The translations under genes and the position numbers were made by a program. A DNA stretch of 64,000 nucleotides from a virus (lineage: Duplodnaviria; Caudoviricetes), in IMG/VR virus record IMGVR_UViG_3300043427_003220, positions 1-64,000 of that record; one strand, given 5' to 3'. Shown in pieces: positions 6,638-63,953 of this stretch. The notes under the pieces are model-generated. The model saw only the letters and a program-made list of their open reading frames with translations. It searched no databases and was not told the DNA's origin. Position 1 is the stretch's first letter. Each line of letters opens with the position of its first letter.

Positions 6638-6646
6638 TGATAAAAT
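6638..6646 (+). promoter_or_regulatory. Extended -10 promoter candidate for the sheath operon
   Basis: TG-A-TAAAAT about 40 nt before ATG; dyads upstream (TTAACAA-aa-TTGTTAA at 6589..6604). Confidence 0.5.
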
Positions 6647-6685
6647 CTGTATGTAGCGTTTGGCCACAAAACTAGGAGCCATAAG

Positions 6686-9505
6686 ATGACAATAGCGTTT
6701 TCGGTAGGCGGGTCACGAGTTGTTACCCCCGGTGTTTATTCAGTATTTAAAGTGCAAGATTCATTGCTCAACGTAGTTGCTGCGGCAAGAAATGTTCTTC
6801 TTATTGGCGAAGCTTCCGAAGGCGTCCCTGGAAACTTGCTTGACCCAACAACTGCATTTTTTACTGACTACCCCACAATGCAGGCTTTTTTTACTTCGGG
6901 TTCAGTTGTAGACGCTGCTCGCCAACTCTTTACCGTGCAGCCTTCCGCTGTATTCACTGGTTCCGTTGGCCGCGTTTATGTTCAACAAACTAACCAAGCA
7001 ACTCGCGCAGAAAAAGCAATTGCGTCTCCCTCTGCTTACGGCAAGGTGGTTGCAACTAAGTTTGGCGAGTCAGGAAATTTTGCTAAGTCACAAATTGTGG
7101 CTTCTGCAGAAGCTCTTCCTTCTGTTTCATTTCAAGTTCTTCCTCTTTCTGTAAATATGGAAGCTGCAGTTTCAGGCGTTCAGTCTGCGGGCACCGCTGC
7201 TATGACATTTGCAGGAGTTGAGAGCTTTGCAAGCAACCTTTCAACCCTTTTGGGCGCCAAGGCCACAGTGTCAGGCGGAACTCTTCAAGACGTAGTTCCA
7301 ACTGGTGCTGACCTGACTCTCGCTGTTTCGGGTAATGATGTGGTCGTATCAAGCTCTATTGCTTGGAACAGCCTTCCTAAAACAGGCGAAGTTGCAATCA
7401 TTCCTCACAGCTCTGGCCTTGTAGGTGCTACCGACAAAAATACTGGCACTTATGTTGTTAAGGCTGCCACCTCAACAACTGTAACTCTTGAAAAGGTCCG
7501 TCAAATGGACAACTCAGGAGCTAGCGCAGTTGCTTGGACTGCTCCAGAAGCTGTTTCTACTCCTGTTACAGCAGGTACGGCTCCATTCACATACGCAACT
7601 GGTGAAGTCATCTTTGTTAGCCCAGTTTCCGTTGAAGTTACTGAGGCTGCTAAAGAGGGCGCAGGCGCTTCTCTTGAGTTGGCCGCTGCTTCCGCTTCCC
7701 TCTTGGGAGTTGCTGCCGTTGCTCGTATGTCAGCTCGCTCAAATCTTCTCAACGCAGCCAATGCCTCATTTGGAACCATTTCGGCTGCTGCTTCCGCAGA
7801 CCAACTCACCGTCTCTCTTGGAGCGGGCGCAGTTTGGATTGCAGCCCCAAAGCTAGGCGATGTTGTTTACGTTTCTCCTTCTTCTCCGGTTGCAGGAGCT
7901 TCTAAGCAAAACGTCGGCCTTCATATTGTATTGTCAGCTTCTCCTTCTTCGGTTGTTTGCAAGAGACTTGACGGCGGTTCCGCTGCTTCCGTTTCTTCAA
8001 CTGCCCTTGCTGGAAAAGAAGATGCTTTGCAGGCTCTTCCTGCATTGGTCAGCTCCTCGGTTGCTGCCAAGAAAGCTGTTTCTTCAAAAGAAGCTCAAGT
8101 GTCAATGAATAGCCTCAATACCGTCACTGGAGAGAGATTCCCTTCAGACAAAATCGGCGGAAAGGTTGTCCTTGAAATTTCTTACTCAGGCACAGCAGCG
8201 GCTGCTAAAGTTTCAATCGACACAAGCCGTCGCGTTAAACTTGTTGCCGATACAGATGAGGTTGTACTCCCAACTCTCAAGTACCCAACACTTGCTGCTC
8301 TAGCTGAAAAGATTAGCTCACTCACAGGATGGGCTGCTCGCGTTGTTGATGCTGGAATGAGTTCAGCTTCTCCAGCTGTGTTGGATATGGTTGATGAAGT
8401 TGGTTGCTTGTCACTTACAAGTGAGCACGCATTCTCAGGCCGCCTCAAAAATGACTACTCAGCTTGGACTTCATTCTTTGCTGGTACGGTTTCCATTCTT
8501 GACTTCGTCGCTGGTGCGCGTCCAGTTAAAGCTGGTCTACCTGCGGGCGAATCTTCACAGTCATTCTTGCTTGGTGGAGCTAAAGGCGCTACTTCAAATG
8601 CAGATATTCAAGCTGCTCTTGACGCTGGCCTCAAAGTTCCAACTGTTCAAGTTCTCCCGCTCTTCTCACGCGACGCATATCTTGATGCTGCTGATGGCCT
8701 AACTGAGCAAGAGTCAACTTACTCTATCGACTCAGTCCACGCCGCTCTTAGAGCACACGTTGCTACTGGATGGTCAAGCGCGGTTCGTCGTGAACGCTTT
8801 GGTCTAGCTTCATTCTTCGGCTCGTTCGAGGATTCAAAAGCTAAGGCTCAGGCTATGAACTATGAAAACGTCTCAATGACATTCCAGCTTGCTCGCGCTA
8901 CGGGCGCAGACGGTAATGCTCAGTGGTTCCTTCCATGGATGCTTCAGTGCTGCATGGCTGCAGGACGTTCACAGGCAGTTCTTGGAACTCCTTTGCTTCG
9001 TAAGTCATTCAACGTCCTCGACGTTAAGCACATTCCAGAGTCATCCGTCTACTCTGACACGTTAACACGTGACTTTGACCCCGCAAGCAGAACGATGGTC
9101 GATGAAGCTATCGAAGCTGGCCTTTTGACCATGGGTGTAGTTGAAGGTGCAGGACTCCGCTTGGTGTCTCCAGACCTCTCAACCCGCAGCCGCGTCAATG
9201 ACCCGAAAGCTTGGGTGTATGAGCGCAACAACGTATCGTTTATCTTTATTGAAGTTATCCAAACTCTCAGAAGCGTTCTTGAGAACTACATCGGCGAGCG
9301 TACTACGGACGTTACCACGGCTGAAGTTGCTTCTACAGTTGTCAATGTTCTTTCATCGTTTGTTACTAGCGGCGCAATCGTTGCATTTAATCGCTCACCG
9401 CTCGTAACCAACCTTGGAAATGGCTATGCTGTGCAAGTGCAGGTTCGCCCTGCTGAAGCGCTTGAGTTTATTTCACTTGATGTAACTGCAACGAGAAATC
9501 TTTAA
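6686..9505 (+). CDS. Contractile tail sheath protein
   Basis: N-terminal VVTPGVYS..LLIGEASEG; C-terminal LENYIG..VQVRPAEALEFI; precedes tube genes. Confidence 0.9.
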   Translation: MTIAFSVGGSRVVTPGVYSVFKVQDSLLNVVAAARNVLLIGEASEGVPGNLLDPTTAFFTDYPTMQAFFTSGSVVDAARQLFTVQPSAVFTGSVGRVYVQQTNQATRAEKAIASPSAYGKVVATKFGESGNFAKSQIVASAEALPSVSFQVLPLSVNMEAAVSGVQSAGTAAMTFAGVESFASNLSTLLGAKATVSGGTLQDVVPTGADLTLAVSGNDVVVSSSIAWNSLPKTGEVAIIPHSSGLVGATDKNTGTYVVKAATSTTVTLEKVRQMDNSGASAVAWTAPEAVSTPVTAGTAPFTYATGEVIFVSPVSVEVTEAAKEGAGASLELAAASASLLGVAAVARMSARSNLLNAANASFGTISAAASADQLTVSLGAGAVWIAAPKLGDVVYVSPSSPVAGASKQNVGLHIVLSASPSSVVCKRLDGGSAASVSSTALAGKEDALQALPALVSSSVAAKKAVSSKEAQVSMNSLNTVTGERFPSDKIGGKVVLEISYSGTAAAAKVSIDTSRRVKLVADTDEVVLPTLKYPTLAALAEKISSLTGWAARVVDAGMSSASPAVLDMVDEVGCLSLTSEHAFSGRLKNDYSAWTSFFAGTVSILDFVAGARPVKAGLPAGESSQSFLLGGAKGATSNADIQAALDAGLKVPTVQVLPLFSRDAYLDAADGLTEQESTYSIDSVHAALRAHVATGWSSAVRRERFGLASFFGSFEDSKAKAQAMNYENVSMTFQLARATGADGNAQWFLPWMLQCCMAAGRSQAVLGTPLLRKSFNVLDVKHIPESSVYSDTLTRDFDPASRTMVDEAIEAGLLTMGVVEGAGLRLVSPDLSTRSRVNDPKAWVYERNNVSFIFIEVIQTLRSVLENYIGERTTDVTTAEVASTVVNVLSSFVTSGAIVAFNRSPLVTNLGNGYAVQVQVRPAEALEFISLDVTATRNL

Positions 9506-9536
9506 TACATAGGGTTTAAAATACCCTATGTATTAA
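9502..9536. other. Perfect 14-bp inverted repeat between sheath and tube genes
   Basis: TTAATACATAGGGT-ttaaaat-ACCCTATGTATTAA; no U-tract. Confidence 0.85.
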
Positions 9537-9550
9537 TAATGGAGTCTTAA

Positions 9551-10801: not shown

Positions 10802-10831
10802 TTGACTCCTTAACCTAATATGCTATAAAAT
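10802..10831 (+). promoter_or_regulatory. Sigma-70-like promoter
   Basis: TTGACT at 10802 and TGCTATAAAAT at 10821..10831. Confidence 0.55.
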
Positions 10832-12205: not shown

Positions 12206-12722
12206 TCCTGTTATCTTTGTTGAGTTGGATGTTGTAGGTACAACAACGGGTGAAAAGTACCAAGGGGTATTTGAACTCAAGAAATTTCTATCTCATAGAG
12301 ACATGACTGAATCATCTCGCGTAGCAAATAGACTTTCAACCGGCTTGCGACGCCCCCCGTCCTATAGTGTCCCCTCTCTCTTGGCGGGAATTAAGGACGC
12401 TCTTCAGAACATCCACGATGAAGTAGCTAATGGCCTTGAAGATAAGGACAAGGTGGCTTTGGTGGCTAGCGACGAAGCAATTCGCCGTGTTATCGAGGGT
12501 ATTTTGCCGGAACTTAAAGATATTGATCCACAATCTGAATTTATTCAAATGCTTGCGGTTCTTAATGCCCATATCGTCAAGGCTCCTGATTGGTGGAAAC
12601 CTAAAAATGAAGAACTAGGCGGGTATCACCTTCTTGACTATACTCCTATCCTAGAGCTAAATCGCCAGTTGGCCGATGCTCAACGTCCTGCTTCCTCAGA
12701 AGAAAAGCCATCTGAGGCTTAA
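12189..12722 (+). CDS. Putative tail assembly chaperone
   Basis: G..TG..Y.G.F..K and IVKAPDWW motifs; immediately before tape measure; own AAGGA RBS. Confidence 0.55.
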   Translation: MSSPLNPVIFVELDVVGTTTGEKYQGVFELKKFLSHRDMTESSRVANRLSTGLRRPPSYSVPSLLAGIKDALQNIHDEVANGLEDKDKVALVASDEAIRRVIEGILPELKDIDPQSEFIQMLAVLNAHIVKAPDWWKPKNEELGGYHLLDYTPILELNRQLADAQRPASSEEKPSEA

Positions 12723-12748
12723 AATATTGCTAAGCATGAGGTGATGGC

Positions 12749-15774: not shown

Positions 15775-17640
15775 ATGAAAGTTAAATATACAAATAATTC
15801 AACAAGATGGGATATCATACTATTTGATTATCTTGATGATATTCCTTCGCCGGAAGAGTCTACAGTCGAAGTTCACAGCGGAAATAAAGGTGTAATATCA
15901 ATCGGTATTTCTCGCTCAAAAGCATCCATTCAAAATACCGCAAGTATTGATGTGGTTGGCGACTTACACCCAGCATATTCTATTGGCAATTGGGTGATTA
16001 TTAAGTCAAAAGTTGGAAAATTTATGGAAAAAGACACTACGTTTACGGAAGTTTCTCCACTGAAAGAGGGTTTAATTCGTTTTATTGGTCAGATTACAAC
16101 TATTGAAAACAATTACTCTGTTCAGGGTTCTGGCCTCTTAACTAAAAGAGCAACCGTTCATATTCGTGAATGGTCCAGCCTATTGAATATTCCTGTAAGA
16201 ATTGACGCTAACTCAATATCTAGTTATTTCAATAAAACCCAAGAGGCTCTCGGAAGATTAAATTTTGTTAAAACCCCAGAAGTTAATATTGCAGAATTGG
16301 CTCAAAAACTGATAGACCCTTTTATGGGCGCCGGCATGGTTTTATCTATTATCGGTGGTTTAAATACAGATTCGCAAACGGGAGCAGACCTCGGCGCTGA
16401 TTTGGGAGAGTATGAAAAGGTTGTAAGTCTTTCAAAACTTACATCTAGAATGCCTAATTTGCCACAACCTCTCCTTGATTATTTGGAGTTGCCAAAATCA
16501 ACACAAGCAAACAATGCTTTTGCAACTGGGTTTACAAATACTCTCTTGGGGGTAATGTATGCAAACTCAACATTTGAGGCGTCTAAACAGGGCGCTTTAG
16601 AAAATTACGGCAAGCAGGAACGCGATCCTAAATCATTTAATGGCTACTTTAAAAGTTACGAACAAGTTAAAACCATGTTCTCTAACTATCGAGATAGGCC
16701 AGTTAAATCAAACTTTTTGTCTTCACTGGGGCAGGGAGCGTCGGCTTGGAGCTTGATTCAAGAGCATATTGATACAACGATAAACGAAGCTTTTACTGAT
16801 ATTTGGTATTTCAAAACAGAATCTGGTGCAACTACGTCGCTGCCGATGATTGTTCTTCGGGATAAGCCATTTGCCCTTAAGGCATTTTTAACTGACCCAG
16901 ACAATCAAATTAAACATACAAAGTGGACAGCTTTTGATGACCTGCCCAGAGTATTTGTTGATGATTCAACAATACAAAGCGTTTCTACAACCAACAGTTT
17001 TTTTACTTCTCCAAACTTTATTATGCCCCAGCTGCAGACAGGCGAGGTTGGCTCATCTAGGTCTGATGACCCAACAGCGGTTCTTACAACCGCCGTACAT
17101 CGCATTATAGATGAGGGGGCTATTGATAGGTTTGGAACCATTGAGCACTATTGGAATACTGTTTATAGTGCTCCAACATCTCAATCGAGCGAAAAGGGCA
17201 CTGTTTATATTCCTTGGTTTGAAGACGCTAAAAAGCTGATGTATTATTGGCACTCTCTTAGTTATCGTTTTGGTGATGCGCGCCTATTACTTAAGGATAA
17301 CAACTTGCCAATTATGGTTGGTTGTAATATATCTTTTCCCATGGGCAAGAATGTTCTTTGCGGTCACGTCGAAGCCGTTAATTGGAGTTTTAGTATTGGT
17401 ATGGATGGAACAGCATCAACATCGACAAATGTTCAGTTGTCATATCTGTGCAAGGTCAAAGAAGACGGCTCGCTAACGCTTATCGGCCCCGCTGGCTTTA
17501 CGGACCTTTTTGACCCAGAGCTTGCTGATTCGGATATTAAAGAACTATTTAAGTTTCCTGAATTTAAAATAAAAGTTCCTAAATTGCAGGATTTGATACC
17601 AAAACTTAATTTACCTAAAATACCGAAAGTGCCATTCTGA
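15775..17640 (+). CDS. Baseplate hub-like protein
   Basis: After tape measure; RFIGQI..I, IDRFG and GHVEAVNWSF patterns. Confidence 0.6.
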   Translation: MKVKYTNNSTRWDIILFDYLDDIPSPEESTVEVHSGNKGVISIGISRSKASIQNTASIDVVGDLHPAYSIGNWVIIKSKVGKFMEKDTTFTEVSPLKEGLIRFIGQITTIENNYSVQGSGLLTKRATVHIREWSSLLNIPVRIDANSISSYFNKTQEALGRLNFVKTPEVNIAELAQKLIDPFMGAGMVLSIIGGLNTDSQTGADLGADLGEYEKVVSLSKLTSRMPNLPQPLLDYLELPKSTQANNAFATGFTNTLLGVMYANSTFEASKQGALENYGKQERDPKSFNGYFKSYEQVKTMFSNYRDRPVKSNFLSSLGQGASAWSLIQEHIDTTINEAFTDIWYFKTESGATTSLPMIVLRDKPFALKAFLTDPDNQIKHTKWTAFDDLPRVFVDDSTIQSVSTTNSFFTSPNFIMPQLQTGEVGSSRSDDPTAVLTTAVHRIIDEGAIDRFGTIEHYWNTVYSAPTSQSSEKGTVYIPWFEDAKKLMYYWHSLSYRFGDARLLLKDNNLPIMVGCNISFPMGKNVLCGHVEAVNWSFSIGMDGTASTSTNVQLSYLCKVKEDGSLTLIGPAGFTDLFDPELADSDIKELFKFPEFKIKVPKLQDLIPKLNLPKIPKVPF

Positions 17641-18512
17641 TGAGCAGAATACCCTACACCCCATCCATTTCTGTAGGTGAGATAGTCGCTATTCAAGAGC
17701 CGGCTTTTGATTCGGATACTGTATTGAAATATATTGTCAGAATAGAAACAGAAAACGGCACAAGCACATTTGTCTCCAACGTAGTGTCTTCAACTATGGT
17801 TGGCGGTATCGCCGATGGTTTTAAGATTTACAGAAGACCAACTGTTATAAACGACAAGACCTACACAATAGATGATAATACTCCCTTTGGAGTAGGCGAA
17901 AGAGTTATCGTTGCTTTTATTAACAATGATTTGCGTCGCGGCGTGATTATTGGTGGATATAATAGAATTATAGATTTGGTACAGCTTCCAGAGCCAGACG
18001 AAAAAAAGCCTCAAATGCGGTTTCAGTATCTTGGTATGATTTTTGATATTGATACTAAAGGGCAACTTACGATTACTCACACCGGTGCTCCTAAGATTAC
18101 CGACAGCCCTCAAGATGTCCCTGAAATCGACGAAAAAAAAGTTTCAACTTTAATGTTTATGGATGATTCTAGTTTTGTATTCGTTGATGCTAGTAAGCAA
18201 TCCGTCAAGGTTGACGCAACTAACAAAAAAATAGAACTCACTTCGGATAAAGAAAAAGTCTCTATTGACCAGACGGGTAGTATAAAAGTTGAGGCATCTA
18301 AGGACGTTACAATTAAGGCCCCCAAAATAGCTTTTGGTACTTCTTCTACAGAACTTCTTGATTTAATTGATAAATTATTAGAGGCTTTTCAACAAGCGGT
18401 ACCTCAGTTTGTTCAGACACCCGTTGGCCCAGGGGTTTTAGACCCCAATTTAGTCTCTACTATTGCTGAAACAAAAACAAAACTAGCCCAAATTAAAGGG
18501 AAAGTAGAATGA
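17640..18512 (+). CDS. Baseplate central spike (gp5/gpV-like)
   Basis: OB-fold-like GERVIVAFIN....GVIIGG followed by beta-helix-like repeats. Confidence 0.75.
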   Translation: MSRIPYTPSISVGEIVAIQEPAFDSDTVLKYIVRIETENGTSTFVSNVVSSTMVGGIADGFKIYRRPTVINDKTYTIDDNTPFGVGERVIVAFINNDLRRGVIIGGYNRIIDLVQLPEPDEKKPQMRFQYLGMIFDIDTKGQLTITHTGAPKITDSPQDVPEIDEKKVSTLMFMDDSSFVFVDASKQSVKVDATNKKIELTSDKEKVSIDQTGSIKVEASKDVTIKAPKIAFGTSSTELLDLIDKLLEAFQQAVPQFVQTPVGPGVLDPNLVSTIAETKTKLAQIKGKVE

Positions 18513-18541
18513 TGGTCGTCTCTTAAAATAGATATGAGGGG

Positions 18542-21189: not shown

Positions 21190-21218
21190 TTGAAAAATAA
21201 CACAACTCATCTTAAAAT
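21190..21218 (+). promoter_or_regulatory. Sigma-70-like promoter
   Basis: TTGAAA-N17-TAAAAT. Confidence 0.55.
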
Positions 21219-30831: not shown

Positions 30832-30863
30832 TAAAATCGCAGTATTAGGTAAAGGGAGCAAAA

Positions 30864-34555: not shown

Positions 34556-34582
34556 TAAAGTTTCTCCTTGACCCTCCGATAA
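34556..34582 (+). promoter_or_regulatory. Sigma-28 promoter P3
   Basis: TAAAGTTT-N11-TCCGATAA; GGAGG and ATG 34614 downstream. Confidence 0.88.
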
Positions 34583-34986: not shown

Positions 34987-35013
34987 TAAAGTTATTTTTG
35001 AGCGTGACGATAA
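34987..35013 (+). promoter_or_regulatory. Sigma-28 promoter P4
   Basis: TAAAGTTA..: TAAA-N15-GACGATAA; GGGGGTG then ATG 35034. Confidence 0.78.
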
Positions 35014-36134: not shown

Positions 36135-36473
36135 ATGAAACATTTATTTTTATGTGTATTATTGGTTGGTTGTGCGACATCTCCGCAAGTTCCAAATTTG
36201 GCTCCACAACCAACGCCCTCCCCTACCCAAACGCCCAAACGCAAGCCAAAATACAAGGTTGGCGACTGTCTTATGATTGTAGATTTGATTAAAGGCGAAA
36301 CTGAATCTCGCCATAGAGTCAAAATTGAGAAAGTCGGCGTAGATCGTTATTACTACAGATGGCTTCTTGACGACGGACGTTGGGACTCGGAATTATCTGG
36401 CAGCGCTGGCAAATTTGAAGTTTTAGAAAAAATTTCAAAAAAAGTGTTTGACTGCCCTAAAGTTTCACAATAA
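36135..36473 (+). CDS. Lipoprotein with Pro-rich linker
   Basis: MKHLFLCVLLVGC lipobox; PQPTPSPTQTP; KYKVGD beta domain. Confidence 0.75.
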   Translation: MKHLFLCVLLVGCATSPQVPNLAPQPTPSPTQTPKRKPKYKVGDCLMIVDLIKGETESRHRVKIEKVGVDRYYYRWLLDDGRWDSELSGSAGKFEVLEKISKKVFDCPKVSQ

Positions 36474-36484
36474 ACAGTCGATAA
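36458..36484 (+). promoter_or_regulatory. Sigma-28 promoter P5
   Basis: TAAAGTTT-N11-GTCGATAA; AAGGAGG and ATG 36522 downstream. Confidence 0.82.
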
Positions 36485-41170: not shown

Positions 41171-41179
41171 TGTTAAAAT
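41171..41179 (+). promoter_or_regulatory. Extended -10 promoter candidate
   Basis: TG-T-TAAAAT about 30 nt before ATG 41211. Confidence 0.5.
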
Positions 41180-41846: not shown

Positions 41847-41951
41847 ATGAACCTTATTTTAAGTGCAATTGTTGTTTTTGTTGGTTATTGCATGATTAAA
41901 ATTGGTCTTTTTTGGATTGGATTGCTTATGTGGATTTTAAATTTGCTGTAA
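41847..41951 (+). CDS. Small membrane peptide (34 aa)
   Basis: MNLILSAIVVFVGYCMIKIGLFWIGLLMWILNLL; strong RBS. Confidence 0.62.
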   Translation: MNLILSAIVVFVGYCMIKIGLFWIGLLMWILNLL

Positions 41952-41986
41952 AATTAAGTTGGCTGTTCGACCAATAAAGGACCCAA

Positions 41987-42307
41987 ATGAAAAATATTTA
42001 CGTCTGTGCCCCTTGGCGTGACCCGAACTCTATCCTTCAATTCAAACAAATCTGCAATAAAATCATTCAGATGGGGCACAATCCAATCTGTTGGGAAATA
42101 ATGTACTCGTCGCTTCTTGACTTTTCTGATTATAAAAACAGAGACAAGGCGCTGAATATGGGTTTATCCCTCATGAATACTTGTCACGAAGTGTGGTTAT
42201 TTGGAGCCAAGACTCCATCAATGCTTCAAGAGATAGAGTTGGCCAAAATAAAAGAATTGACAATTGTGGAGCACTCTCTTCTTGACTTTCTTCATAGTTC
42301 AAGGTAA
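41987..42307 (+). CDS. Nucleoside 2-deoxyribosyltransferase-like (DUF4406-type) protein
   Basis: IYVCAP, GHNPI, L...CHEVWLFG...SM..EIELA. Confidence 0.65.
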   Translation: MKNIYVCAPWRDPNSILQFKQICNKIIQMGHNPICWEIMYSSLLDFSDYKNRDKALNMGLSLMNTCHEVWLFGAKTPSMLQEIELAKIKELTIVEHSLLDFLHSSR

Positions 42308-42310
42308 AAT
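42282..42310 (+). promoter_or_regulatory. Sigma-70-like promoter
   Basis: TTGACT-N17-TAAAAT. Confidence 0.65.
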
Positions 42311-45326: not shown

Positions 45327-45354
45327 TAAAGTTCGTTCCCGTGTGTTCCGATAA
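45327..45354 (+). promoter_or_regulatory. Sigma-28 promoter P7
   Basis: TAAAGTTC..: TAAA-N16-TCCGATAA; GGAGGT then ATG 45376. Confidence 0.75.
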
Positions 45355-47254: not shown

Positions 47255-47260
47255 GAGTCA

Positions 47261-48908: not shown

Positions 48909-49090
48909 AAGTCTACGCAATTGTTGAAAATTCTGGCCCATTTACTGTCCTTCTTCATTTGACTGTTTATCGCACAGAAGAGCAGGCTCAAGAGGCCCTT
49001 GAACAAATCAATAAAGATTACGTAGAGTGGTCAAAAGATACAGAATTTGTTTCTAAAGCAAAAGTTATTGAGTTAGAAGTTGCGGACTAA
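48905..49090 (+). CDS. Hypothetical protein
   Basis: GGGAG RBS; MKVY.I...IELEV pattern. Confidence 0.68.
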   Translation: MKVYAIVENSGPFTVLLHLTVYRTEEQAQEALEQINKDYVEWSKDTEFVSKAKVIELEVAD

Positions 49091-49114
49091 AGTTTTTCCT
49101 TGTCCTGCCGATAA
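49088..49114 (+). promoter_or_regulatory. Sigma-28 promoter P8 (perfect consensus)
   Basis: TAAAGTTT-N11-GCCGATAA. Confidence 0.9.
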
Positions 49115-52957: not shown

Positions 52958-53881
52958 TTACCAAATCTTTAATTGATTCAAAGCGTCTATAAACTTTTTG
53001 CTAGTCATTTTCGTAACGCACTCAGCAATTTCCATCTTGCGAGGACAATTAGCAAAGTTCCAATAGTTTAACGACCAATCGGACTCGCAAAAGCTGCAGG
53101 CAATGTTAGGAACAACAGCAATTGTTGGAACGCGGCCTCTATAGGGAATACGAAGGTCTGGCTTGATGGTTGTAAAGCCACAGACAACAGGAGTTCTTGT
53201 TGTCCAAGCAATATGTATAGGTCCGCCGTCCATCCCCACAATAGCTTTGGCTTGGCTCATAATAGTGGCAAGTTCTCTGAATGTTGTATCGTCTCTAAGG
53301 TCTACTCCAAATCCTGGGTACTCAAAGTCACTTGCAGCAAGGCTGGTTTTCCAAATAGAAATAGCTCCTCTCTTGCCCACATAAACAGGAGTCAAACCCT
53401 TGGAATAAACATATTCAGCAATCTTGGTGATTTCTTCTGGCAAGATTGTGCGTTGCTTGTCTCTATAAGTTGTGATGATAATGACTGACTTTGAAAAGTC
53501 TACGCCATAGCGATTGACATCTGCTGGCAAAAGAGGAACATACTGAGCATCAACGTCGTCAATAACGCGCCCCAATAAACCAATAGATGCGTATTGAGTT
53601 AACTTCATTCGAGATGGAGTTAGCTTACAAACATGATTGCCAACTCCAAGCATATTTAAGTGCCTGATTGAATAACCTGCAGGATACTGAGCGGTTACCT
53701 CGGTAAACTTACTTTCAGGAACAAAATGAAAGAAATCTTTAAAGTCTGGGTAAATTCCAACAAGATAATCATCTGTTCTTCTGTGGAAGTTTTCAATAGC
53801 GAACTTTAAAGAAGGAGCTGCGGCTATTAAATCGCCCACGGCAGCAGAGTTCAAACAATATACGACTTTATCTGCAATCAT
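52958..53881 (-). CDS. Glycosyltransferase family 9 (heptosyltransferase-like)
   Basis: AVGDLI, DLRDDTTFRELATIM..A..IVGMDGGPIHIA, C-terminal CxxC..CPR..EC. Confidence 0.85.
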   Translation of the reverse strand: MIADKVVYCLNSAAVGDLIAAAPSLKFAIENFHRRTDDYLVGIYPDFKDFFHFVPESKFTEVTAQYPAGYSIRHLNMLGVGNHVCKLTPSRMKLTQYASIGLLGRVIDDVDAQYVPLLPADVNRYGVDFSKSVIIITTYRDKQRTILPEEITKIAEYVYSKGLTPVYVGKRGAISIWKTSLAASDFEYPGFGVDLRDDTTFRELATIMSQAKAIVGMDGGPIHIAWTTRTPVVCGFTTIKPDLRIPYRGRVPTIAVVPNIACSFCESDWSLNYWNFANCPRKMEIAECVTKMTSKKFIDALNQLKIW

Positions 53882-53883
53882 AA

Positions 53884-55335
53884 TCAAACCTCTTTATATA
53901 CAATATCGTCCGTTATTGTTTCATATACGTTATATCTTGACTTAGCATACTGTTTAAAAATATCAAAGAACTTTTCGCTGTCATTGTTCCAAATTCCATA
54001 CCCAGCAGTTGTAATATCAATAAAAATTAGTTTTTTGCCCTTCTTGTATCGCAATCCACGGCCAATAACCTGCCGAGTCAAAGCCTCTGCTGAGTTCTGA
54101 ACACAAGAAATCATGAAGTCAACATCAGGCAAGTCGATACCCTCTCCAAGCAAACTGCTATTGGAGATTAGTAAATTTGTTTTGCCGTCTTTAAATTTAT
54201 AAAAAGGATTGCGATATCCACTATGGGCGGGCTCACAAGATATCCCCATCTCAGTTGCATACTCGCAAAACTCTGCCGACGGCTCTACGGTCTTAAACAA
54301 CACTAAGACTTTAAGACCCTTGTTCAGCCCGCTCTTTACTAGATTAAGCACCGTATGGAGTGCTTTCTCATGAGTCGAAAGCATCTTATAAGCTGTTTGC
54401 TGATGAGTCATTTCTCGAACGCGACCAAGCCCAGTAATTGTAAGGCAGGTGATGGCTACAGGACAAAGATACTCATTATCAATAGCCCATTTACTGTCCC
54501 TCTGAAAGACGATAGGACCTACAATCCCATGAAAACCTAGCTCTAGGTTGTCTGCCCTGACTGGAGTCGCAGTAAAGCCATAGATATACTTGGCTCGACT
54601 CCCAAAGATAGCCAGCTCTTTATACATATTAGAGGAAGAATGATGAGCTTCGTCGATGATGATGGCATCAAAAATGTCCGAATAGTTACGGCCACTGTTA
54701 ACAGTAGCAATAGCAATATCGACACCCTCTTTAAATTTGTGTTTGCCTCCAATTCCGCAGCTCTTGGGAGCAATCTGTTTAATGTCTTTGAGCATCTGAG
54801 AAATGAGTTCGACAGTAGGGACAACAATCAGGACTCTAAGGCCACGCTCGATGAGGGCGCGGCTCAGTAGACTGATACACATTGACTTGCCCGTTCCCGT
54901 GGGAAGAACGATACAGCCCCTTTTGTATTGCAGAGCCGTTCTAACGGCATCAGCCTGATAGTCTCTTGGAACTTTAGGGCCAACTGGAGACAGGTTAAGC
55001 TCCTTGCTTTTTTCCTTGTGACCATCCATATTGGGCACAAGCCACCAAAAACCTGGGGGTACGCTCAAAGTGCCGTCCTCGTTGTCGCCATAAAACTCAA
55101 CCTTAGTTTCCAGTTCTAACTGTGCAATTTCATTCTTTATTTTAATTGCGTGCTTGTCGTTGTAAGGTTTTTGACGTTTGAGCTGTTTAATCTTTGAAAT
55201 GACACCTTTATTTTCAACTGTTAAGAGATTCTTGACAGTTTCAAGTACACTCACAGAGCCAGACAAGGTGATTTCATTGTTCTTGTATTCGCCAATAAGG
55301 CCGTGTATGGGTTCAAAAGCATTATCTTTAGCCAT
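53884..55335 (-). CDS. SF2 DExH helicase (UvsW-like)
   Basis: RDYQ, LPTGTGKS, IIDEAHH, TATP, EGIDLP, QVIGRGLR. Confidence 0.92.
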   Translation of the reverse strand: MAKDNAFEPIHGLIGEYKNNEITLSGSVSVLETVKNLLTVENKGVISKIKQLKRQKPYNDKHAIKIKNEIAQLELETKVEFYGDNEDGTLSVPPGFWWLVPNMDGHKEKSKELNLSPVGPKVPRDYQADAVRTALQYKRGCIVLPTGTGKSMCISLLSRALIERGLRVLIVVPTVELISQMLKDIKQIAPKSCGIGGKHKFKEGVDIAIATVNSGRNYSDIFDAIIIDEAHHSSSNMYKELAIFGSRAKYIYGFTATPVRADNLELGFHGIVGPIVFQRDSKWAIDNEYLCPVAITCLTITGLGRVREMTHQQTAYKMLSTHEKALHTVLNLVKSGLNKGLKVLVLFKTVEPSAEFCEYATEMGISCEPAHSGYRNPFYKFKDGKTNLLISNSSLLGEGIDLPDVDFMISCVQNSAEALTRQVIGRGLRYKKGKKLIFIDITTAGYGIWNNDSEKFFDIFKQYAKSRYNVYETITDDIVYKEV

Positions 55336-55382: not shown

Positions 55383-55391
55383 TGATAAAAT
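55383..55391 (+). promoter_or_regulatory. Extended -10 promoter candidate
   Basis: TG-A-TAAAAT about 28 nt before ATG 55419. Confidence 0.5.
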
Positions 55392-57547: not shown

Positions 57548-57603
57548 GTATTATTGTAAAATAAGGCCATAAGGTCACGTCCAAACTCCTGTAAAGGTGC
57601 AAA

Positions 57604-60600
57604 ATGTCTGAAATTTTACATAAAGACTTAATTGGCGAAGATATTCATGAATTAAAAGTTACAGTATCTGCAGCCCCTCCAGCCTCGGTTCCAATATTCG
57701 TAGGGCAGGGCTATTATGATTTAGTAGCTAAAAAGTTTTATGTAGCGCAAGGGACATCTTTGTTGTCAGACTGGATTACTACAGACATTCCGCCATTTTT
57801 GACTTTTTTGGACACTAGGACAATCTCTTGGACTTCGACCACCAGCGGCGGCGGCACTCAAATTACATATAGTGCAAACGTGGAAGAAGCGGAGTTAATA
57901 TTAACTTCAACTAATATCACAGACTTTTCAAACGCCGTTCTTACTCTTCCAGAAATTGTTTCTTTGTTGGCAGACCAACACACTCGTTTAATTTTAAGAA
58001 CAGGAGGAGAGCCTAACCCAACGGTATGGAGCCCCGCTGTTTTTAATGGCCTAGAGCTTGACAGCGATTCTCAAAAAATTAAACTTTCTCAAAACTTATC
58101 TGAAATTGGCGACCCTACCTTCAACGAAACTACACTGACTATTCGTTCAAGAACTCCTTTATTAACTCTGACTTCCGGTGGTACTCCTACCGCTGCATCT
58201 TTATACCTTGACGGCAGTAAGGGCATGGTTGCGAGGGGTTTTGCCGGCAGTACGTCTAGCTTTACGTTGCAAAATGAGGCCGGAGACGACGTACTTAAAA
58301 ATCCTGTAAGCACCGATCAACTTGTTCTTCCGTCGTTAGGTGGATTGGATGCACCTTACGTTGTTCATTCCGATGCAAGTGGATTGCTTTCTGCATCTAA
58401 GCTCGTCGATGCTGATGTAGATGCCGCTGCAGCTATTGCAGGCACTAAGGTTTCTCCTGACTTTGGTAGTCAAAATATTACTACTACCGGTTCAGTTTTA
58501 GTTGACACAATCGAATCAAACACCAATGATATTGGTATTTTAACTGGAAACGATAATAAAACAATCTTAATTGGTACTGGTAGCGGATACAATACAATTA
58601 ATCTGGGTGGTACCAATACGGTTGTAAATATTTCAGGCGCCGTATATACAACTCCGGTTGAGTACGTAACAGAAGATAAAAACATTGTAGTAAATTTTAA
58701 TGCTTCTGGACAAGATTCTCCGGATTCAGGCCTTTATGTTCAAGAAGAATATAGCGGCGCACTTATTAACCTTACAGATGCAACTTGGCAAGCTGGAAAT
58801 ACGGTAAGATATGCGGTTGATATAGCCGGCATTGATGGTCTGGTCGCCGGTGAATATGTCCGTATTACTGGTTTTGTAAATACTCAAAATAATGGGACTT
58901 TTAAAGTATTAACCGCAAATGCTGGGTATATTGACGTTGTCAATCCCAAAAGAACAGATGCTTCTAAAGACGAAACAGGTGTAACTGCAAACGCAGCTCG
59001 CTTATTGCTAAATGGTTATATTCATGTTGGCTCGACTCGCATGAGTTGGGAAGTGCGTGCGCCCGCTCACGCCGGAATTATAGAATTAAAACCACAAACG
59101 GCAGCAAAAACTCTTCAAATTACCAGCGAGTCATCCAACGATGTAACCGTTAAATTTAATACAAATCTTACCGTAGACCAAGATTTACAAAAAACATCTT
59201 CGGTTGAGTTTTCTGATGCAAAAATATCAACTTTTGGCACAGGCATTGTTCACTCAAATGCCAGTGGACAGCTTTCATCTTCTTTAATTCAAAACGCTGA
59301 TGTGGACGGCTCAGCTGCTATTGCAGGAACAAAAATTTCTCCTGATTTTGGTAGCCAAAATATTACCACCACCGGAGACTTGTCCGTTAGTTCAGTAAAA
59401 GTTACAGGGATCGAACCCGTAGGCGGAGCTAACTTTTTTACATCCGCAACAAATGGACTTGTATTAAGAGGAGTTGCTGGAACATCCGCTCAGTTTAAGT
59501 TAATCAGCGACCTTGGTGTAAATTTTGTTACAATTACAGATACTTCTGTAACATTTCATAGCTTAACAAATGGAGTTGTAAAAGCATCTTCCGGAACACT
59601 AAGCTCAAGTTTATTAGTAAACGCAGACGTAGACGCTGCAGCAAATATTGAGGGCAGTAAAATTCAAGCTGCAGGCCCTACAAATGCCGGAGTTGTTGAT
59701 ACCGCCACTCAATCTTTTAGTGGAAACAAAACCTTTAACGGTAACGTAAGTATTACTAACTTTAGTGCAGCCGGAGTTGTTCACAACAACGCAGCGGGAT
59801 TACTATCAACGTCGCTCATTATGAACGCAGACGTTGACCCGTCGGCAGCTATTTCAGCAACAAAACTTTCAAATCAACCGTCCGGAAATATTGCAGCAAC
59901 AACCGTTCAAGCCGCAATCAATGAATTGGATACAGAAAAAGTAGCAAAATCCGGCGATAGTATGACCGGCGATTTATCTTTCGCCTCTAATTTTGGTATT
60001 CAATCAACCTCTGCAAGTAGCGTATTGGATGTCGGAACAAATGCAAATACCGCTGTATTAAACTTAGGCACGGGCAGCTTTACAAATACAATCAATTTAG
60101 GAACTGGCTCCGGCACAACGACTATTAATATTGGGGGTCCGAGCGATACTGTTAATATTACTGGAACCTTAAATACAGTCAATGTGACTGATATGGAAAT
60201 TACAGATAAAAACATTACTCTTAATAAAAACGGACCCGCTGCATCTGGTGACGGCTCTGGAATTAATATAGAAGAAGGCTCTTTAATTACTGGTTTTTCT
60301 AAAATAGGAAACAGTAGAACTAGTTGGGAATTTAAAGCTCCGGCTAGCTCTGGTTCTGTTTTACTAACTCCCTCTGCCGGCGCGCATGTGGCTGAATTTA
60401 AAATTCCAGCGCTTAGCTCTTCGGCAATTTACACTTTTCCTTTAACAACAGACTCGATTGTTGGAAGGAACAGTACAGATGATTTGTCTAATAAAACTTT
60501 GTTTAATCCAAAAATCGACCAAATTACCCCCTACAACGTAGACCAAACAATTACAATTAACGGCACAGCCGGCTTAAAAATACCCAGCGGAACAGACGCT

Positions 60601-62505
60601 CAAAGGTCTGCGTTTACTGGTCAAGACGGAATGGTTCGATACAACACGACAAATAATTTTTATGAAGGTCATTCTGCTGGAAGCTGGGCCCCATTAAGTG
60701 GCGGCAGAGTGGTTAATATCTCTTCTACAACAACACTATCAAATGAAACTAGATACCTAACAAATACTTTTGCAGGACCTTTTTCAGTTACACTACCTCT
60801 TGGCTCCCTTAATTCAAGAATTGAGATTAAAGACGCTGTTTATACATGGCAAACAAATAACTTAACAATTATTCCTGCTTCTGGCCAGAGAATTGAGTCA
60901 TTGGCGGTCAACGAGTCGCTTGTGTGCGACATCAACGGTGGGTGGGTTGTATTAGATTGGGATAATGCAAACTCAGTTTGGAACCTTTCAACAAGTGCTT
61001 TGGTTGATTTAAATGATACGTATGCTACCGAAAGCTATGCGGGAATTGTAAGTACAAGCAATCAAACTTTTGCAGGAACAAAAAAATTTAATGATGGTAT
61101 TATATTAGAAACAAATACCACCCCTGCAATTGCTCCGTCGAATGGCATTCAAGTTTACGCAAAAGCAGACAATAAGCTTTACACCCTTAATTCTTTGGGT
61201 GTGGAGCAAGCGGTCGGTTCCGGCGGTTCAGTATTGTCAATTGCTCAATCTGCGCACGGTTTTACCTCCGCTGACGTTGGTCGTCCGTTGTACCTTAATA
61301 CTTCTTTATACGCCTTTGCGCAAGCAAACACCGAAGCAAGGGCAGAGGTTGCTGCGCTCATTAGTAGAATCGTTGACGCAGATAACTTTGAAATCTGTCT
61401 CGGCGGTGAAGTCTCTTCTGTGGGGTCTAATCTAATTGTTGGCGGCGGCTCTCTTACGCCCGGAGAAATGTACTTTTTGTCCGCAACTGACGAGGGAAAG
61501 ATTTCTATTACTCCTCCGTCCGTGGTTGGTCAGATTTCTAAACCCGTTGGTATCGCCCGTACTACGACTGCGCTTGATTTCTTCAATATGCGCGGTTTGC
61601 CGGTTGGCGGAACAAACGCATATTCACAAATTACACTTACTAATAACGCAGTCACAACTATTCAAAATGCTTCGGCTTATGATAGCGTTGAGCTTTCCGG
61701 CTGGGTTTATATTAACGCAACCGTAAAATACCGCTTTGCTATAAAAGTTCAAGTAACTAAAAATGGAGCCGGAAATAACTATCTTGTCAGCTTTCAGCAT
61801 TCCGGTGATACCCCACCAACGGGATTTGACATAGACGCAACTGCGGCTGGTCTTGTTCAGATTACGCTTCCGTCGATTGCCGGTTTTACGTCTGCGGTTG
61901 TACAATTTAGCCTCAACGGCCCCGCAGTTGGCGCTAGTTTGCCATTGCAAATTGAGTCTACAAACGTAAGCTTTAGTACAGTTCAGGCTAAAGATAGCAC
62001 TGGTATTGCTTTTCGAAATTCATCTGGAACCACGATTGCAACTTTAAATAACAGCGGTCATTTGCTTTTACCAAAAATTCCAGTATTTTATGCGTGGAGG
62101 CCAGGTGCTGCTTTTGCAACGACTACCGGAGCTTTCGGAACAATCGCACCTGTATTTAATACAACCAGAGTAAATGTGGATACTTGTTACAATACAACAA
62201 ACGGCAGGTTCACCGCACCAGTTGCGGGAATTTATGAATTTCAATTTGGAATTACACATAGATGGAGCACCGGAGCAGGTAATTTAGAGCCAACTTTTTA
62301 TGTTGATGGCACAAATGCTTCTCCCAGAGGATGTGCGTATTCGTATGTAACCGCCGCGAATGATCATGATTGGGTTCATACTCATATTATCCTATCGTTA
62401 AACGCAGGTCAGTACGTTCAATGCGGAATTCATGCATGCGCAGCCGGAACAGATTATTATTATGGCGAACAGTTAGGTTATTTTTCTGGTAAATTAATTG
62501 GATAA
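57604..62505 (+). CDS. Long fibre/adhesin-like virion protein with C-terminal C1q-like domain
   Basis: S/T/G-rich internal repeats; fibre repeat FSVTLP..IEIKD..NNLTI; YNTTNGRFTAPVAGIYEF...FSGKLIG. Confidence 0.8.
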   Translation: MSEILHKDLIGEDIHELKVTVSAAPPASVPIFVGQGYYDLVAKKFYVAQGTSLLSDWITTDIPPFLTFLDTRTISWTSTTSGGGTQITYSANVEEAELILTSTNITDFSNAVLTLPEIVSLLADQHTRLILRTGGEPNPTVWSPAVFNGLELDSDSQKIKLSQNLSEIGDPTFNETTLTIRSRTPLLTLTSGGTPTAASLYLDGSKGMVARGFAGSTSSFTLQNEAGDDVLKNPVSTDQLVLPSLGGLDAPYVVHSDASGLLSASKLVDADVDAAAAIAGTKVSPDFGSQNITTTGSVLVDTIESNTNDIGILTGNDNKTILIGTGSGYNTINLGGTNTVVNISGAVYTTPVEYVTEDKNIVVNFNASGQDSPDSGLYVQEEYSGALINLTDATWQAGNTVRYAVDIAGIDGLVAGEYVRITGFVNTQNNGTFKVLTANAGYIDVVNPKRTDASKDETGVTANAARLLLNGYIHVGSTRMSWEVRAPAHAGIIELKPQTAAKTLQITSESSNDVTVKFNTNLTVDQDLQKTSSVEFSDAKISTFGTGIVHSNASGQLSSSLIQNADVDGSAAIAGTKISPDFGSQNITTTGDLSVSSVKVTGIEPVGGANFFTSATNGLVLRGVAGTSAQFKLISDLGVNFVTITDTSVTFHSLTNGVVKASSGTLSSSLLVNADVDAAANIEGSKIQAAGPTNAGVVDTATQSFSGNKTFNGNVSITNFSAAGVVHNNAAGLLSTSLIMNADVDPSAAISATKLSNQPSGNIAATTVQAAINELDTEKVAKSGDSMTGDLSFASNFGIQSTSASSVLDVGTNANTAVLNLGTGSFTNTINLGTGSGTTTINIGGPSDTVNITGTLNTVNVTDMEITDKNITLNKNGPAASGDGSGINIEEGSLITGFSKIGNSRTSWEFKAPASSGSVLLTPSAGAHVAEFKIPALSSSAIYTFPLTTDSIVGRNSTDDLSNKTLFNPKIDQITPYNVDQTITINGTAGLKIPSGTDAQRSAFTGQDGMVRYNTTNNFYEGHSAGSWAPLSGGRVVNISSTTTLSNETRYLTNTFAGPFSVTLPLGSLNSRIEIKDAVYTWQTNNLTIIPASGQRIESLAVNESLVCDINGGWVVLDWDNANSVWNLSTSALVDLNDTYATESYAGIVSTSNQTFAGTKKFNDGIILETNTTPAIAPSNGIQVYAKADNKLYTLNSLGVEQAVGSGGSVLSIAQSAHGFTSADVGRPLYLNTSLYAFAQANTEARAEVAALISRIVDADNFEICLGGEVSSVGSNLIVGGGSLTPGEMYFLSATDEGKISITPPSVVGQISKPVGIARTTTALDFFNMRGLPVGGTNAYSQITLTNNAVTTIQNASAYDSVELSGWVYINATVKYRFAIKVQVTKNGAGNNYLVSFQHSGDTPPTGFDIDATAAGLVQITLPSIAGFTSAVVQFSLNGPAVGASLPLQIESTNVSFSTVQAKDSTGIAFRNSSGTTIATLNNSGHLLLPKIPVFYAWRPGAAFATTTGAFGTIAPVFNTTRVNVDTCYNTTNGRFTAPVAGIYEFQFGITHRWSTGAGNLEPTFYVDGTNASPRGCAYSYVTAANDHDWVHTHIILSLNAGQYVQCGIHACAAGTDYYYGEQLGYFSGKLIG

Positions 62506-62517
62506 GGGGTATAAACA

Positions 62518-62970
62518 ATGGCAAAGACTACATTAATAGAAAAAGGCCAAATACTCCAATGTGCATATTTTGGTGAATTTAGCGGCAGTGGAACAAATAA
62601 TAACTGGTCTTTAGCATTGGGGACCGCATCGTTTACTCCGAAAAAAGCAAATTCTCAAATTTTAATAATGTACAATGGCACCCTTTATAATAACTCAGTT
62701 CCCTCTTCAGCTGGCGGCGGAGCAAGATTAAAAAGAAATGGCGTCGTTATTCAATCAGCGCAAAATACGGACGGCGGCGGCACGCAACCATATGCCATGT
62801 ATGCTTCCGGATTAGGAAATATGGCGACAAGGCTTCATTATCAATACTTAGACACACCAAACACAACGTCTGCAATAAATTATTCAATAGAAGTATCGTC
62901 ATACAGCACCGCAAGTTCCGCATTTACTGCTTTTGGTTGGTCAATTGTAATAATGGAAATTGCGGGGTAG
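62518..62970 (+). CDS. Small beta-sandwich virion/fibre-associated protein
   Basis: GQILQ, FTPK..NS.ILI, YLDTPNTTSAINY, IMEIAG. Confidence 0.65.
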   Translation: MAKTTLIEKGQILQCAYFGEFSGSGTNNNWSLALGTASFTPKKANSQILIMYNGTLYNNSVPSSAGGGARLKRNGVVIQSAQNTDGGGTQPYAMYASGLGNMATRLHYQYLDTPNTTSAINYSIEVSSYSTASSAFTAFGWSIVIMEIAG

Positions 62971-62971
62971 T

Positions 62972-63016
62972 TATGGCAAAAGTACCATTAATACAAAGTA
63001 GCTATCCTGTTTTTCC
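62972..63016 (+). repeat. 45-bp exact direct repeat copy 1
   Basis: TATGGCAAAAGTACCATTAATACAAAGTAGCTATCCTGTTTTTCC, identical at 63427..63471. Confidence 0.95.
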
Positions 63017-63425
63017 AGATAGACCTTACTTTTTTGCTAATACCGTTGGAGAGGGAAATGCAGGAAATGGTCTAACTCGAACTATTGTTTTTGGTACGGC
63101 GGTTGAAAACAGAGGCAGCTGCTACAGTACATCCACTGGGAGATTTACAGCTCCAATCGGCGGTGTATACCATTTTGACTGTTTAGTGATGGAAGAAACT
63201 TATTATGGCAATTGGAGCGATTGGGATTGTTATTTTAGAAAAAATGGAACAGCAATTGCTGGTATTTTGGGTGACATCAACACACCTCAATTAGATGAAC
63301 AAGTTTTTAGCGCATCGGTTACGGTATATTTAAACACCGGAGATTGGGTTGACATAGTGCTTTATACCAGCGGTGCCAACACAATTGAAGCTCCGTCTTA
63401 TTTTTGTGGACATTTAGTGGGGTAA
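62973..63425 (+). CDS. C1q-like domain protein
   Basis: YSTSTGRFTAPIGGVYHF, L.TGDWV, FCGHLVG; start at MAKVP. Confidence 0.8.
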   Translation: MAKVPLIQSSYPVFPDRPYFFANTVGEGNAGNGLTRTIVFGTAVENRGSCYSTSTGRFTAPIGGVYHFDCLVMEETYYGNWSDWDCYFRKNGTAIAGILGDINTPQLDEQVFSASVTVYLNTGDWVDIVLYTSGANTIEAPSYFCGHLVG

Positions 63426-63426
63426 G

Positions 63427-63471
63427 TATGGCAAAAGTACCATTAATACAAAGTAGCTATCCTGTTTTTCC
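63427..63471 (+). repeat. 45-bp exact direct repeat copy 2
   Basis: Identical to 62972..63016. Confidence 0.95.
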
Positions 63472-63892
63472 TGAACGCCCTTCTTTTTTTATAGGGTGGC
63501 CTGGGGCAATGTCTTTAACCGGAACCGCCGCTCTTCCTCCCACCGGCGGATCGGTAAAATTTAATAATGGTTCTCATTTTAATACTTCGACAATGCGCTT
63601 TACCTGTCCTGTTGCTGGACTGTATTTAATAGGCGCAAGCTATTTACGGCAAAACGCAAGTAATGCTGTAGTTCGTATGAATGCTTTTAAAAATGGAACC
63701 GGTGAAAATCAGCAGTTGCGTTCTACCGAAGCCTATACTGGTTTTAATTATACAGCCGGACAATGGTGGTTAATAAAAGCAAATGTTGGCGATCTTTTAG
63801 ATGTCAGAATTTCGGCAGACAGCGCAACCTCTTTGTACGCAGACGGTGGAAACGGTGAATATAATTGGATTTGTGGGTATTTGATTGGATAG
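63428..63892 (+). CDS. C1q-like domain protein
   Basis: FNTSTMRFTCPVAGLY, NVGDLLDV, ICGYLIG; start at MAKVP. Confidence 0.8.
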   Translation: MAKVPLIQSSYPVFPERPSFFIGWPGAMSLTGTAALPPTGGSVKFNNGSHFNTSTMRFTCPVAGLYLIGASYLRQNASNAVVRMNAFKNGTGENQQLRSTEAYTGFNYTAGQWWLIKANVGDLLDVRISADSATSLYADGGNGEYNWICGYLIG

Positions 63893-63953
63893 TATTACAT
63901 AATTTTAATGTAGCATACTGCACAAATAAAATAGTGTTGCAAAGGAGAACTCA

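Follow-up and report, generated by a model that had tools for sequence, protein, structure and literature searches.

The hexamer TAAAAT was analysed in a 64-kb window (bases 1-64000 of one 162,747-bp contig, 41.9% GC) of the genome of an uncultured freshwater phage. The position, orientation and conservation of its copies indicate that TAAAAT is a real, conserved −10-like promoter element without a −35 box, which heads most virion-gene units and a few nucleotide-metabolism genes. The same genome carries a second class of promoters resembling those of the flagellar sigma factor FliA (sigma-28). It is probable on balance that the TAAAAT promoters form a late class, served by the host primary sigma together with a phage factor, and that the FliA-type promoters are served by host sigma-28.

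TAAAAT is enriched and oriented upstream of genes

The initial annotation had listed 11 copies of TAAAAT before mostly virion and packaging genes, some with TGn and some with TTGA(A/C)-N17, and had cautioned that TAAAAT is common in AT-rich DNA. All 11 copies were present at the positions in Table 1, each 18-52 nt upstream of a start codon on the + strand, and the TGn and TTGA(A/C)-N17 elements (the latter at 21190 and 42282) were found as described. The genes behind them agree with the stated bias, as they include the tail sheath, Baseplate_J, tube-initiator-like and tail-fibre genes, the gene before the portal gene, and a gene with a weak prohead-protease match. The caution also holds for the window as a whole, where the two strands together have 91 copies and shuffles give 93.5 ± 9.2.

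A test of positional enrichment, proposed along with these sites, was positive: 17 of the 91 window copies lay 15-75 nt upstream of a start on the sense strand, a zone covering 3.7% of positions, whereas 3.4 were expected (binomial P = 4 × 10−8). These 17 copies comprise the 11 noted ones and those at 9517, 17565, 17616, 41423, 41949 and 49518. Over the whole genome, no other hexamer was as enriched as TAAAAT in the 70 nt ahead of the 187 open reading frames (ORFs): 40 copies were found for 7.4 expected, with 15 in the antisense orientation. In sense-oriented intergenic DNA (91 segments, 6,837 nt, 68% AT) 32 copies were counted, compared with 13.4 ± 3.5 in 1000 dinucleotide shuffles (maximum 24); TAAAAT ranked first there among the 15 hexamers of A4T2 composition, and its intergenic copies were oriented 32 sense versus 8 opposite.

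The boxes frequently stand after hairpin-plus-T-run terminators. Those at 12720, 30832 and 42305 overlap or abut the upstream stop codon (at 12720 and 42305 the stop codon TAA supplies the first three bases of the box), and the promoter is thereby packed into a zero-length gap. The copy at 9517 sits in the loop of a hairpin and more plausibly belongs to a terminator or stabilising hairpin than to a promoter, and not every upstream TAAAAT is therefore a promoter.

TAAAAT is conserved in sister phages

Conservation was assessed mainly in a syntenic sister phage (G002, 122 kb; nucleotides 77% identical across 105,765 aligned nt, with 0.767 for intergenic DNA). TAAAAT was identical at 15 of 15 alignable upstream intergenic sites, for a neutral expectation of about 0.2 per site. 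Upstream copies inside coding-region ends were kept at 9 of 12 sites, and control copies in coding DNA at 24 of 91. Ten of the 11 noted sites could be aligned and all ten were kept, the site at 63927 lying beyond the end of the sister contig. TAAAAT was again the top upstream hexamer in the sister (27 versus 4.9).

At the sheath gene, five sister contigs keep the box stretch while the flanks vary, and distant relatives have TATAAT or CATAAT in place of TAAAAT. A distant complete relative (G001, 187 kb, sheath 40% identical) has TAnAAT before four of nine orthologues (sheath, major head protein, protease-like gene and an 874-aa ORF); for 10 more targets it lacks an orthologue. The gap upstream of the sheath gene of Myxococcus phage Mx1, 36 nt, is too short for a comparison of the box. 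Since the box drifts around the sigma-70 consensus across the family, host primary sigmas are suggested as its readers.

Architecture of the TAAAAT element

The anatomy was derived from 41 sites aligned on the box, and −35 and TGn elements were counted over 43 sites. TAAAAT matches the canonical −10 box TATAAT at five of six positions. A purine occupied the position 7 nt after the box in 34 of the 41 sites and C in one, as expected for a transcription start; at the noted sites the purine was found in 10 of 11, the exception being 41174. The base right after the box was A in 22/41 sites, and the two extended −10 positions showed a mild preference for T and G. TGn preceded the box at 8/43 sites, about three times the 6.2% background, yet in a minority too small for the class to be called extended −10. 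The −35 hexamers at 21190 and 42282 are real, and as a class such hexamers are no commoner than chance. Among variants of the −10 box, TAGAAT was slightly enriched upstream of genes (8 versus 3.4), and TATAAT and TACAAT were not enriched; the signal is thus specific to TAAAAT.

Classical −35/−10 pairs (at least 9.5/12) were found before 10 genes only, six of which are TAAAAT sites; a large set of classical early promoters apart from these is absent. The closest match to a classical promoter in the genome, TTGACA-N17-CATAAT (11/12; genome 110427-110473), precedes the endolysin gene and differs from both main classes.

A FliA-type promoter class in the same genome

The pattern TAAAG-N16-CGATAA occurred in 14 exact copies, compared with 0.23 in block shuffles (maximum 3), and in 23 copies with at most one mismatch, compared with 5.1. 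The copies combine TAAAG(TTT) and (G)CCGATAA boxes at fixed spacing and are oriented toward a gene, as FliA promoters are. The sister phage keeps both boxes and varies the spacers, and the class therefore shows the conservation pattern typical of a bipartite promoter. The records of two close sisters, G002 and G003, contain five exact copies each; none was present in G001 or in two fragments. In several copies the 8-10 bases after the −10 box are alike (G-n-n-TTATGTAAG-like), which suggests a conserved start region or a promoter cassette copied around the genome.

Written with the spacing TAAAG-N15-CCGATA, the phage boxes have the E. coli arrangement. Strings of eight letters from that consensus occur in the available part of the E. 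coli FliA map (PMC4183435), and the Bdellovibrio motif given in the available part of Karunker et al. is TTAAG-N16-CCGATA (PMC3627812). A literature search found no report of FliA-dependent (sigma-28) phage promoters.

The two promoter types are divided between gene classes

TAAAAT lay 15-75 nt upstream of 11 of 31 annotated structural genes, 6 of 33 DNA/metabolism genes, 8 of 79 small unannotated ORFs and 10 of 44 large unannotated ORFs; the corresponding counts for FliA-type promoters were 0/31, 1/33, 9/79 and 3/44. Between structural genes and small ORFs the difference gave P = 0.0037 for TAAAAT (Fisher) and P = 0.059 for the FliA type, and no gene had both promoter types. The two-class split put forward in the initial annotation is thus real, with both classes present, and at the same time leaky, the large terminase and ribonucleotide reductase genes being exceptions.

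The gene for a GlpX-type fructose-1,6-bisphosphatase and the beginning of the large terminase gene share 8 nt (window 38299-41170). From this arrangement the two genes, one metabolic and one for packaging, are apparently co-transcribed behind FliA-type promoters. One metatranscriptome (X20) yielded 23 short low-depth contigs over 30001-50000, on virion and accessory genes; these may reflect DNA carry-over and give no starts, strand or timing.

Proposed readers of the promoters and alternatives

The host polymerase must read these promoters, because no recognisable phage sigma or RNA polymerase was found. Sigma70_r2/r4 gave no six-frame match at E ≤ 10, the same search being positive in 11 and 14 of 14 control genomes. 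Sigma, polymerase and late-transcription families were absent from the Pfam/PHROGs results over the 187 ORFs and from the 97 unannotated ORFs (E ≤ 0.05), and the only DxDGD polymerase motif lay inside a fibre protein. A conserved 159-aa protein beside the recombinase, tried as a reader of TAAAAT, was a weak lead that looked UvsY-like and not sigma-like.

The reader of TAAAAT would most likely be the host primary (sigma-70-family) sigma, contacting the −10 box only, as the canonical TATAAT or CATAAT of relatives at the sheath site suggests. A bare −10 box is a weak promoter for the sigma-70 holoenzyme, and because the box is also invariant a phage factor appears to be needed; a phage-encoded activator or sigma-modifying protein probably compensates for the missing −35. 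Dependence on such a factor would make the TAAAAT promoters late, and transcription from them would begin about 7 nt past the box. Late timing obtained in this way, with a −35-less box held back by the phage factor, needs no appeal to host physiology. The FliA-type promoters would most likely be read by unmodified host sigma-28 holoenzyme, a natural reader given how closely the boxes match the FliA consensus, and would drive small accessory cassettes and at least one replication-module gene.

Several observations weigh against this explanation. Every column in the −35 region of the 41 aligned sites carried less than 0.2 bit, and a −35 with at least 4/6 matches was present at 8/43 sites for a background of 13.8%. 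The usual spread of −10 variants was absent upstream of genes (TATAAT 4 versus 3.9, TACAAT 3 versus 4.6), and the invariant single box looks more like a promoter for a dedicated phage factor than an ordinary housekeeping promoter. Of the label 'sigma-70-type' given initially, the −10-like box with its downstream purine stands, and the remainder is not borne out by a near-invariant box with no −35 signal or TATAAT enrichment. No candidate for the activator or sigma-modifying protein was found with Pfam/PHROGs at loose thresholds, sigma domains or DxDGD. Positions −35 to −26 were kept between the sisters at 198/220 positions, counted at sites already found conserved, versus about 0.78 in the surroundings; they share no motif and this conservation is unexplained. 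The large terminase gene (39194-41170) has no TAAAAT and belongs to a run headed by FliA-type promoters, and the DNA/metabolism genes that do carry TAAAAT include the gene for the ribonucleotide reductase small subunit. The box at 18524 is too near the start codon for a normal leader, and its geometry is questionable, since the ribosome-binding site would contain the predicted transcription start. The gene calls themselves came from a simple longest-ORF heuristic.

An unrecognised late sigma of the phage, small and very divergent like T4 gp55 and contacting a −10-like box only, could read TAAAAT instead of the host primary sigma, and is a serious competing explanation. An invariant box with TATAAT unenriched, the missing −35 and the concentration on virion genes would suit such a factor, which could hide among the unannotated ORFs, about half of the 187. 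We consider it unlikely, since the Pfam, PHROGs and six-frame searches described above gave no sigma-like or late-transcription match, TAAAAT differs from the T4 box TATAAATA, and the canonical TATAAT of distant relatives fits differing host sigmas better than one conserved phage sigma. Ordinary weak housekeeping promoters, constitutive and with no temporal role, would account for the boxes before non-virion genes (ribonucleotide reductase, DUF7768, HNH) and for the sites with a usable −35 or with TGn, the virion bias then reflecting where intergenic gaps lie. This reading has little probability, given that the hexamer is exactly invariant at all alignable intergenic sites, that promoter type differs by gene class with no gene having both, and that a lone −10 box serves the sigma-70 holoenzyme poorly. 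The unremarkable whole-window count and the AT content of the intergenic DNA are what would be expected if the boxes were a chance product of that DNA; this origin was rejected by the shuffles of the intergenic DNA itself and by the conservation in the sister phage, together with the rank and orientation of the hexamer, and its probability is negligible.

The initial annotation had tentatively explained the two classes by an inverted two-sigma programme in a Bdellovibrio-like predatory host, in which FliA-type genes would fire in the motile attack phase and virion genes behind TAAAAT would wait for prey entry and the housekeeping sigma. Bdellophages are said in old reports to multiply only during growth of the predator in prey. 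Both promoter classes are indeed real, the nearest named phage infects Myxococcus, and the metagenomes that contain the phage DNA come from freshwater, aquaculture and soil, which are habitats of such predators. The premise that FliA dominates the attack phase is also in print, the available part of the source assigning 92 of 140 mapped attack-phase promoters of B. bacteriovorus to a FliA-type motif (PMC3627812). The predatory host itself received no Bdellovibrio signal from the GlpX, ClpX, SLT and sheath searches or from the comparison of the first 20 kb with 401 Bdellovibrionota genomes described below. The deferral of virion genes is weakened as well, since synthetic sigma-70 (Anderson) promoters are active in attack-phase B. 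bacteriovorus according to the available part of PMC12622784, and sigma-70 promoters would thus not be silent in that phase. The phage spacing differs from the published Bdellovibrio one, and any flagellated host fits the FliA-type class equally. The predatory-host account found no support here and is very improbable. The late TAAAAT class read by the host primary sigma with a phage factor, beside a class read by host sigma-28, is the reading retained here.

Host searches

The GlpX, ClpX and SLT searches, made with one genome per species, gave best hits of 39-53% identity scattered over many phyla, with no preference for Bdellovibrionota. For GlpX (45-53%) Parvibaculum was at the top, followed by Acetobacteraceae, Acidobacteriota, Myxococcota and more, with single Oligoflexia and Bdellovibrio entries. 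ClpX-like hits (39-45%) came from Bacillota, Nitrospirota, Actinomycetota and others, and the SLT domain was nearest to Litoricola-like Gammaproteobacteria (about 40%). The sheath had no relative among 185,579 species genomes. The first 20 kb of the 163 kb, compared with 401 Bdellovibrionota genomes, gave no spacer-like match, only short clpX homology and chance-level matches of 23-30 nt. Exact FliA patterns with either spacing numbered 0-5 per genome in 15 genomes from the family of a Bdellovibrio metagenome-assembled genome, barely above controls.

Phage DNA was found in public freshwater, aquatic, aquaculture and soil metagenomes from about 12 studies, a distribution that fits many hosts; no culture run was found among the public runs with phage DNA. 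A family-9 heptosyltransferase-like gene (window 52958-53887, minus strand) and a SIS-domain, sedoheptulose-isomerase-like gene (genome 156941-157543) suggest, as annotated, that the phage may alter heptose in the lipopolysaccharide of a Gram-negative host. These two genes and the Shine-Dalgarno sites suggest a Gram-negative host that uses ribosome-binding sites, and the FliA-type promoters suggest a flagellated one.

Genome context and feature positions

The database entry for the contig is a virus record listing direct terminal repeats and an estimated completeness of 100%. Pfam and PHROGs scans of the 187 ORFs identified the genome as that of a large myovirus (Table 1). The genome has no tRNA genes. 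The sole named relative is Myxococcus phage Mx1, which is distant (portal 24%, sheath 30%, large terminase 29% identity); a phage collection gave zero nucleotide matches to this genome, and no relevant report on the Mx1 genome was found in the literature.

Three paralogous tail-collar fibre genes (114-905, 161081-161866 and 161906-162694) each follow an identical 39-nt leader. Because the terminal repeat of the contig falls in this repeated fibre-leader region, the repeat may determine where the record begins and ends. The 1633-aa fibre protein (window 57604-63892 region) has a C-terminal C1q-like domain, and its gene is followed by three short ORFs, two of which share this domain, an arrangement that resembles a set of exchangeable receptor-binding tips. 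A stretch of about 45 nt (genome 136330-136385) in the divergent region that separates the SSB gene from the plus-strand block has hardly changed between the sisters while its flanks vary; it may represent an operator, an origin or divergent promoters that overlap.

Table 1. Promoter-like elements and landmark genes of the phage genome, with positions in the window or, beyond 64000, in the genome
Feature	Position	Strand	Context
TAAAAT with TGn	6641..6646	+	45 nt before tail sheath gene 6686-9505; kept in G002
Perfect hairpin, TAAAAT (9517) in loop	9506..9532	+	After sheath gene; conserved in sister phage
TAAAAT, TTGACT 18 nt upstream	10826..10831	+	Before 108-aa ORF after tube gene; kept in G002
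TAAAAT overlapping upstream TAA stop	12720..12725	+	29 nt before 1003-aa ORF; kept in G002
TAAAAT with TTGATA-N17 (further site)	17616..17621	+	Before 290-aa ORF 17640-18512; kept in G002
TAAAAT	18524..18529	+	18 nt before 358-aa tube-initiator-like gene; kept in G002
TAAAAT with TTGAAA-N17	21213..21218	+	Before 2350-aa Baseplate_J gene; kept in G002
TAAAAT right after upstream TAG stop	30832..30837	+	32 nt before 825-aa ORF; G001 orthologue also has TAAAAT
TAAAAT with TGn	41174..41179	+	After large terminase, before 87-aa ORF and HNH gene; kept in G002
TAAAAT (further site)	41949..41954	+	Before DUF7768 gene 41987-42307; kept in G002
TAAAAT with TTGACT-N17	42305..42310	+	Before 326-aa ORF preceding portal gene; kept in G002
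TAAAAT with TGn	55386..55391	+	Divergent intergenic region, before 260-aa prohead-protease-like gene; kept in G002; G001 orthologue has TATAAT
TAAAAT	57557..57562	+	Before 1633-aa tail-fibre-like gene with C1q domain; kept in G002
TAAAAT	63927..63932	+	27 nt before 131-aa ORF 63954-64349; G002 contig ends there
FliA-type, one mismatch	2711		Window
FliA-type TAAAG-N16-CGATAA	3060..3086	+	Before small ORFs
FliA-type	34556..34582	+	Before 106-aa ORF 34614-34934; G002 keeps boxes, spacer differs
FliA-type	34987..35013	+	Before 67-aa ORF 35034-35237
FliA-type	36458..36484	+	Heads co-directional run to GlpX (38299) and large terminase (39194); boxes kept in G002, spacer changed
FliA-type, spacer one base longer	45327..45354	+	After portal gene, before small-ORF block
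FliA-type	49088..49114	+	213-nt intergenic region; second copy, spacer one base longer, at 49255-49282
FliA-type, single mismatch	124218	−	Before DnaB-like helicase gene
FliA-type	155196		
FliA-type, weaker conserved variant	136.4 kb		Heads plus-strand block
Alike stretches after FliA-type −10 box	2738-2750, 34583-34595; genome 155223-155235, 158199-158211		
39-nt leader copies	75-113; genome 161867-161905, 162695-162733		Before tail-collar fibre genes
Sheath, tube, baseplate and many fibre genes	6.6-33 kb and 55-108 kb		
Portal gene	43.3 kb (43331-45325)		
Replication block (DnaE-type polymerase, helicase, primase, recombinase, SbcCD, GroEL)	114-136 kb	−	
Nucleotide-metabolism genes	136-158 kb		
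TAAAAT, major-head-protein site	near 158724		
Major head protein gene	158.8 kb		

Implications

Promoter maps exist for very few large uncultured phages, and the two-class map given here relies solely on sequence and comparison. The existence of a late-gene switch protein, as yet undiscovered, is indicated by the TAAAAT class. If host sigma-28 reads the second class, the success of the phage would be tied to the motility state of the host; such dependence, if true, would matter for lake phage ecology and for host prediction from promoter types. A stronger and more tentative proposal, which we regard as possible though doubtful, is that a phage without a sigma of its own splits its genome between two host sigmas, placing about 15 accessory or early cassettes on flagellar sigma-28 and keeping virion genes behind TAAAAT until a phage protein opens them for the housekeeping sigma. 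If so, a proper start of infection would be limited to motile cells, in keeping with a phage that binds flagella or a host that swims permanently, and the programme would be a host-state-gated two-sigma one of a kind not described in print.

Comparison with known systems

Thermus phage P23-45 reportedly uses −35-independent middle/late promoters that are read by the host sigma-A polymerase after gp39 and gp76 have bound, the class being defined by an extended −10 TGn. The action of gp39 and gp76 on the host polymerase is documented in the available part of PMC3950348. As in P23-45, no polymerase of the phage's own was found here and virion genes lie behind −35-less promoters, the presumed reader is the host primary-sigma holoenzyme, and a phage factor is proposed to switch promoter preference. 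Unlike in P23-45, TGn marks a minority of the boxes, no gp39- or gp76-like protein was recognised (PHROGs and unannotated-ORF searches), and the companion class is FliA-type and not ordinary −35/−10.

The late promoters of T4 consist of a TATAAATA box, which gp55 recognises together with gp33 and the sliding clamp. They share with the TAAAAT class a single near-invariant A/T box at −10, the lack of a −35 and the position ahead of virion genes. They differ in the box itself; moreover, no homologue of gp55, gp33 or the clamp was detected here with Pfam and PHROGs, and distant relatives of this phage use the canonical TATAAT. In Mu (C), P2/P4 (Ogr/Delta) and P1 (Lpa), late promoters combine a sigma-70 −10 box with a −35 that is poor or missing, and they stay silent until the phage activator is made. 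The TAAAAT class resembles them in this box arrangement and, as proposed here, in awaiting a phage activator; the activator site of those promoters, however, lies upstream of −35, whereas the TAAAAT sites have no shared upstream motif, just the raised conservation at −35 to −26.

The FliA-type class has the same two boxes and spacing (TAAAG-N15-CCGATAA) as class 3 flagellar FliA/sigma-28 promoters, judged from the available part of the E. coli map (PMC4183435), but is located in a lytic phage genome before accessory genes. An invariant −35-less −10-like late box is a known design, seen in T4, in Thermus phages and in activator-dependent promoters, and the TAAAAT class is a new member of it. 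What sets this phage, in which no sigma gene was found, apart from the known systems is the pairing of that class with about 15 FliA-type promoters.

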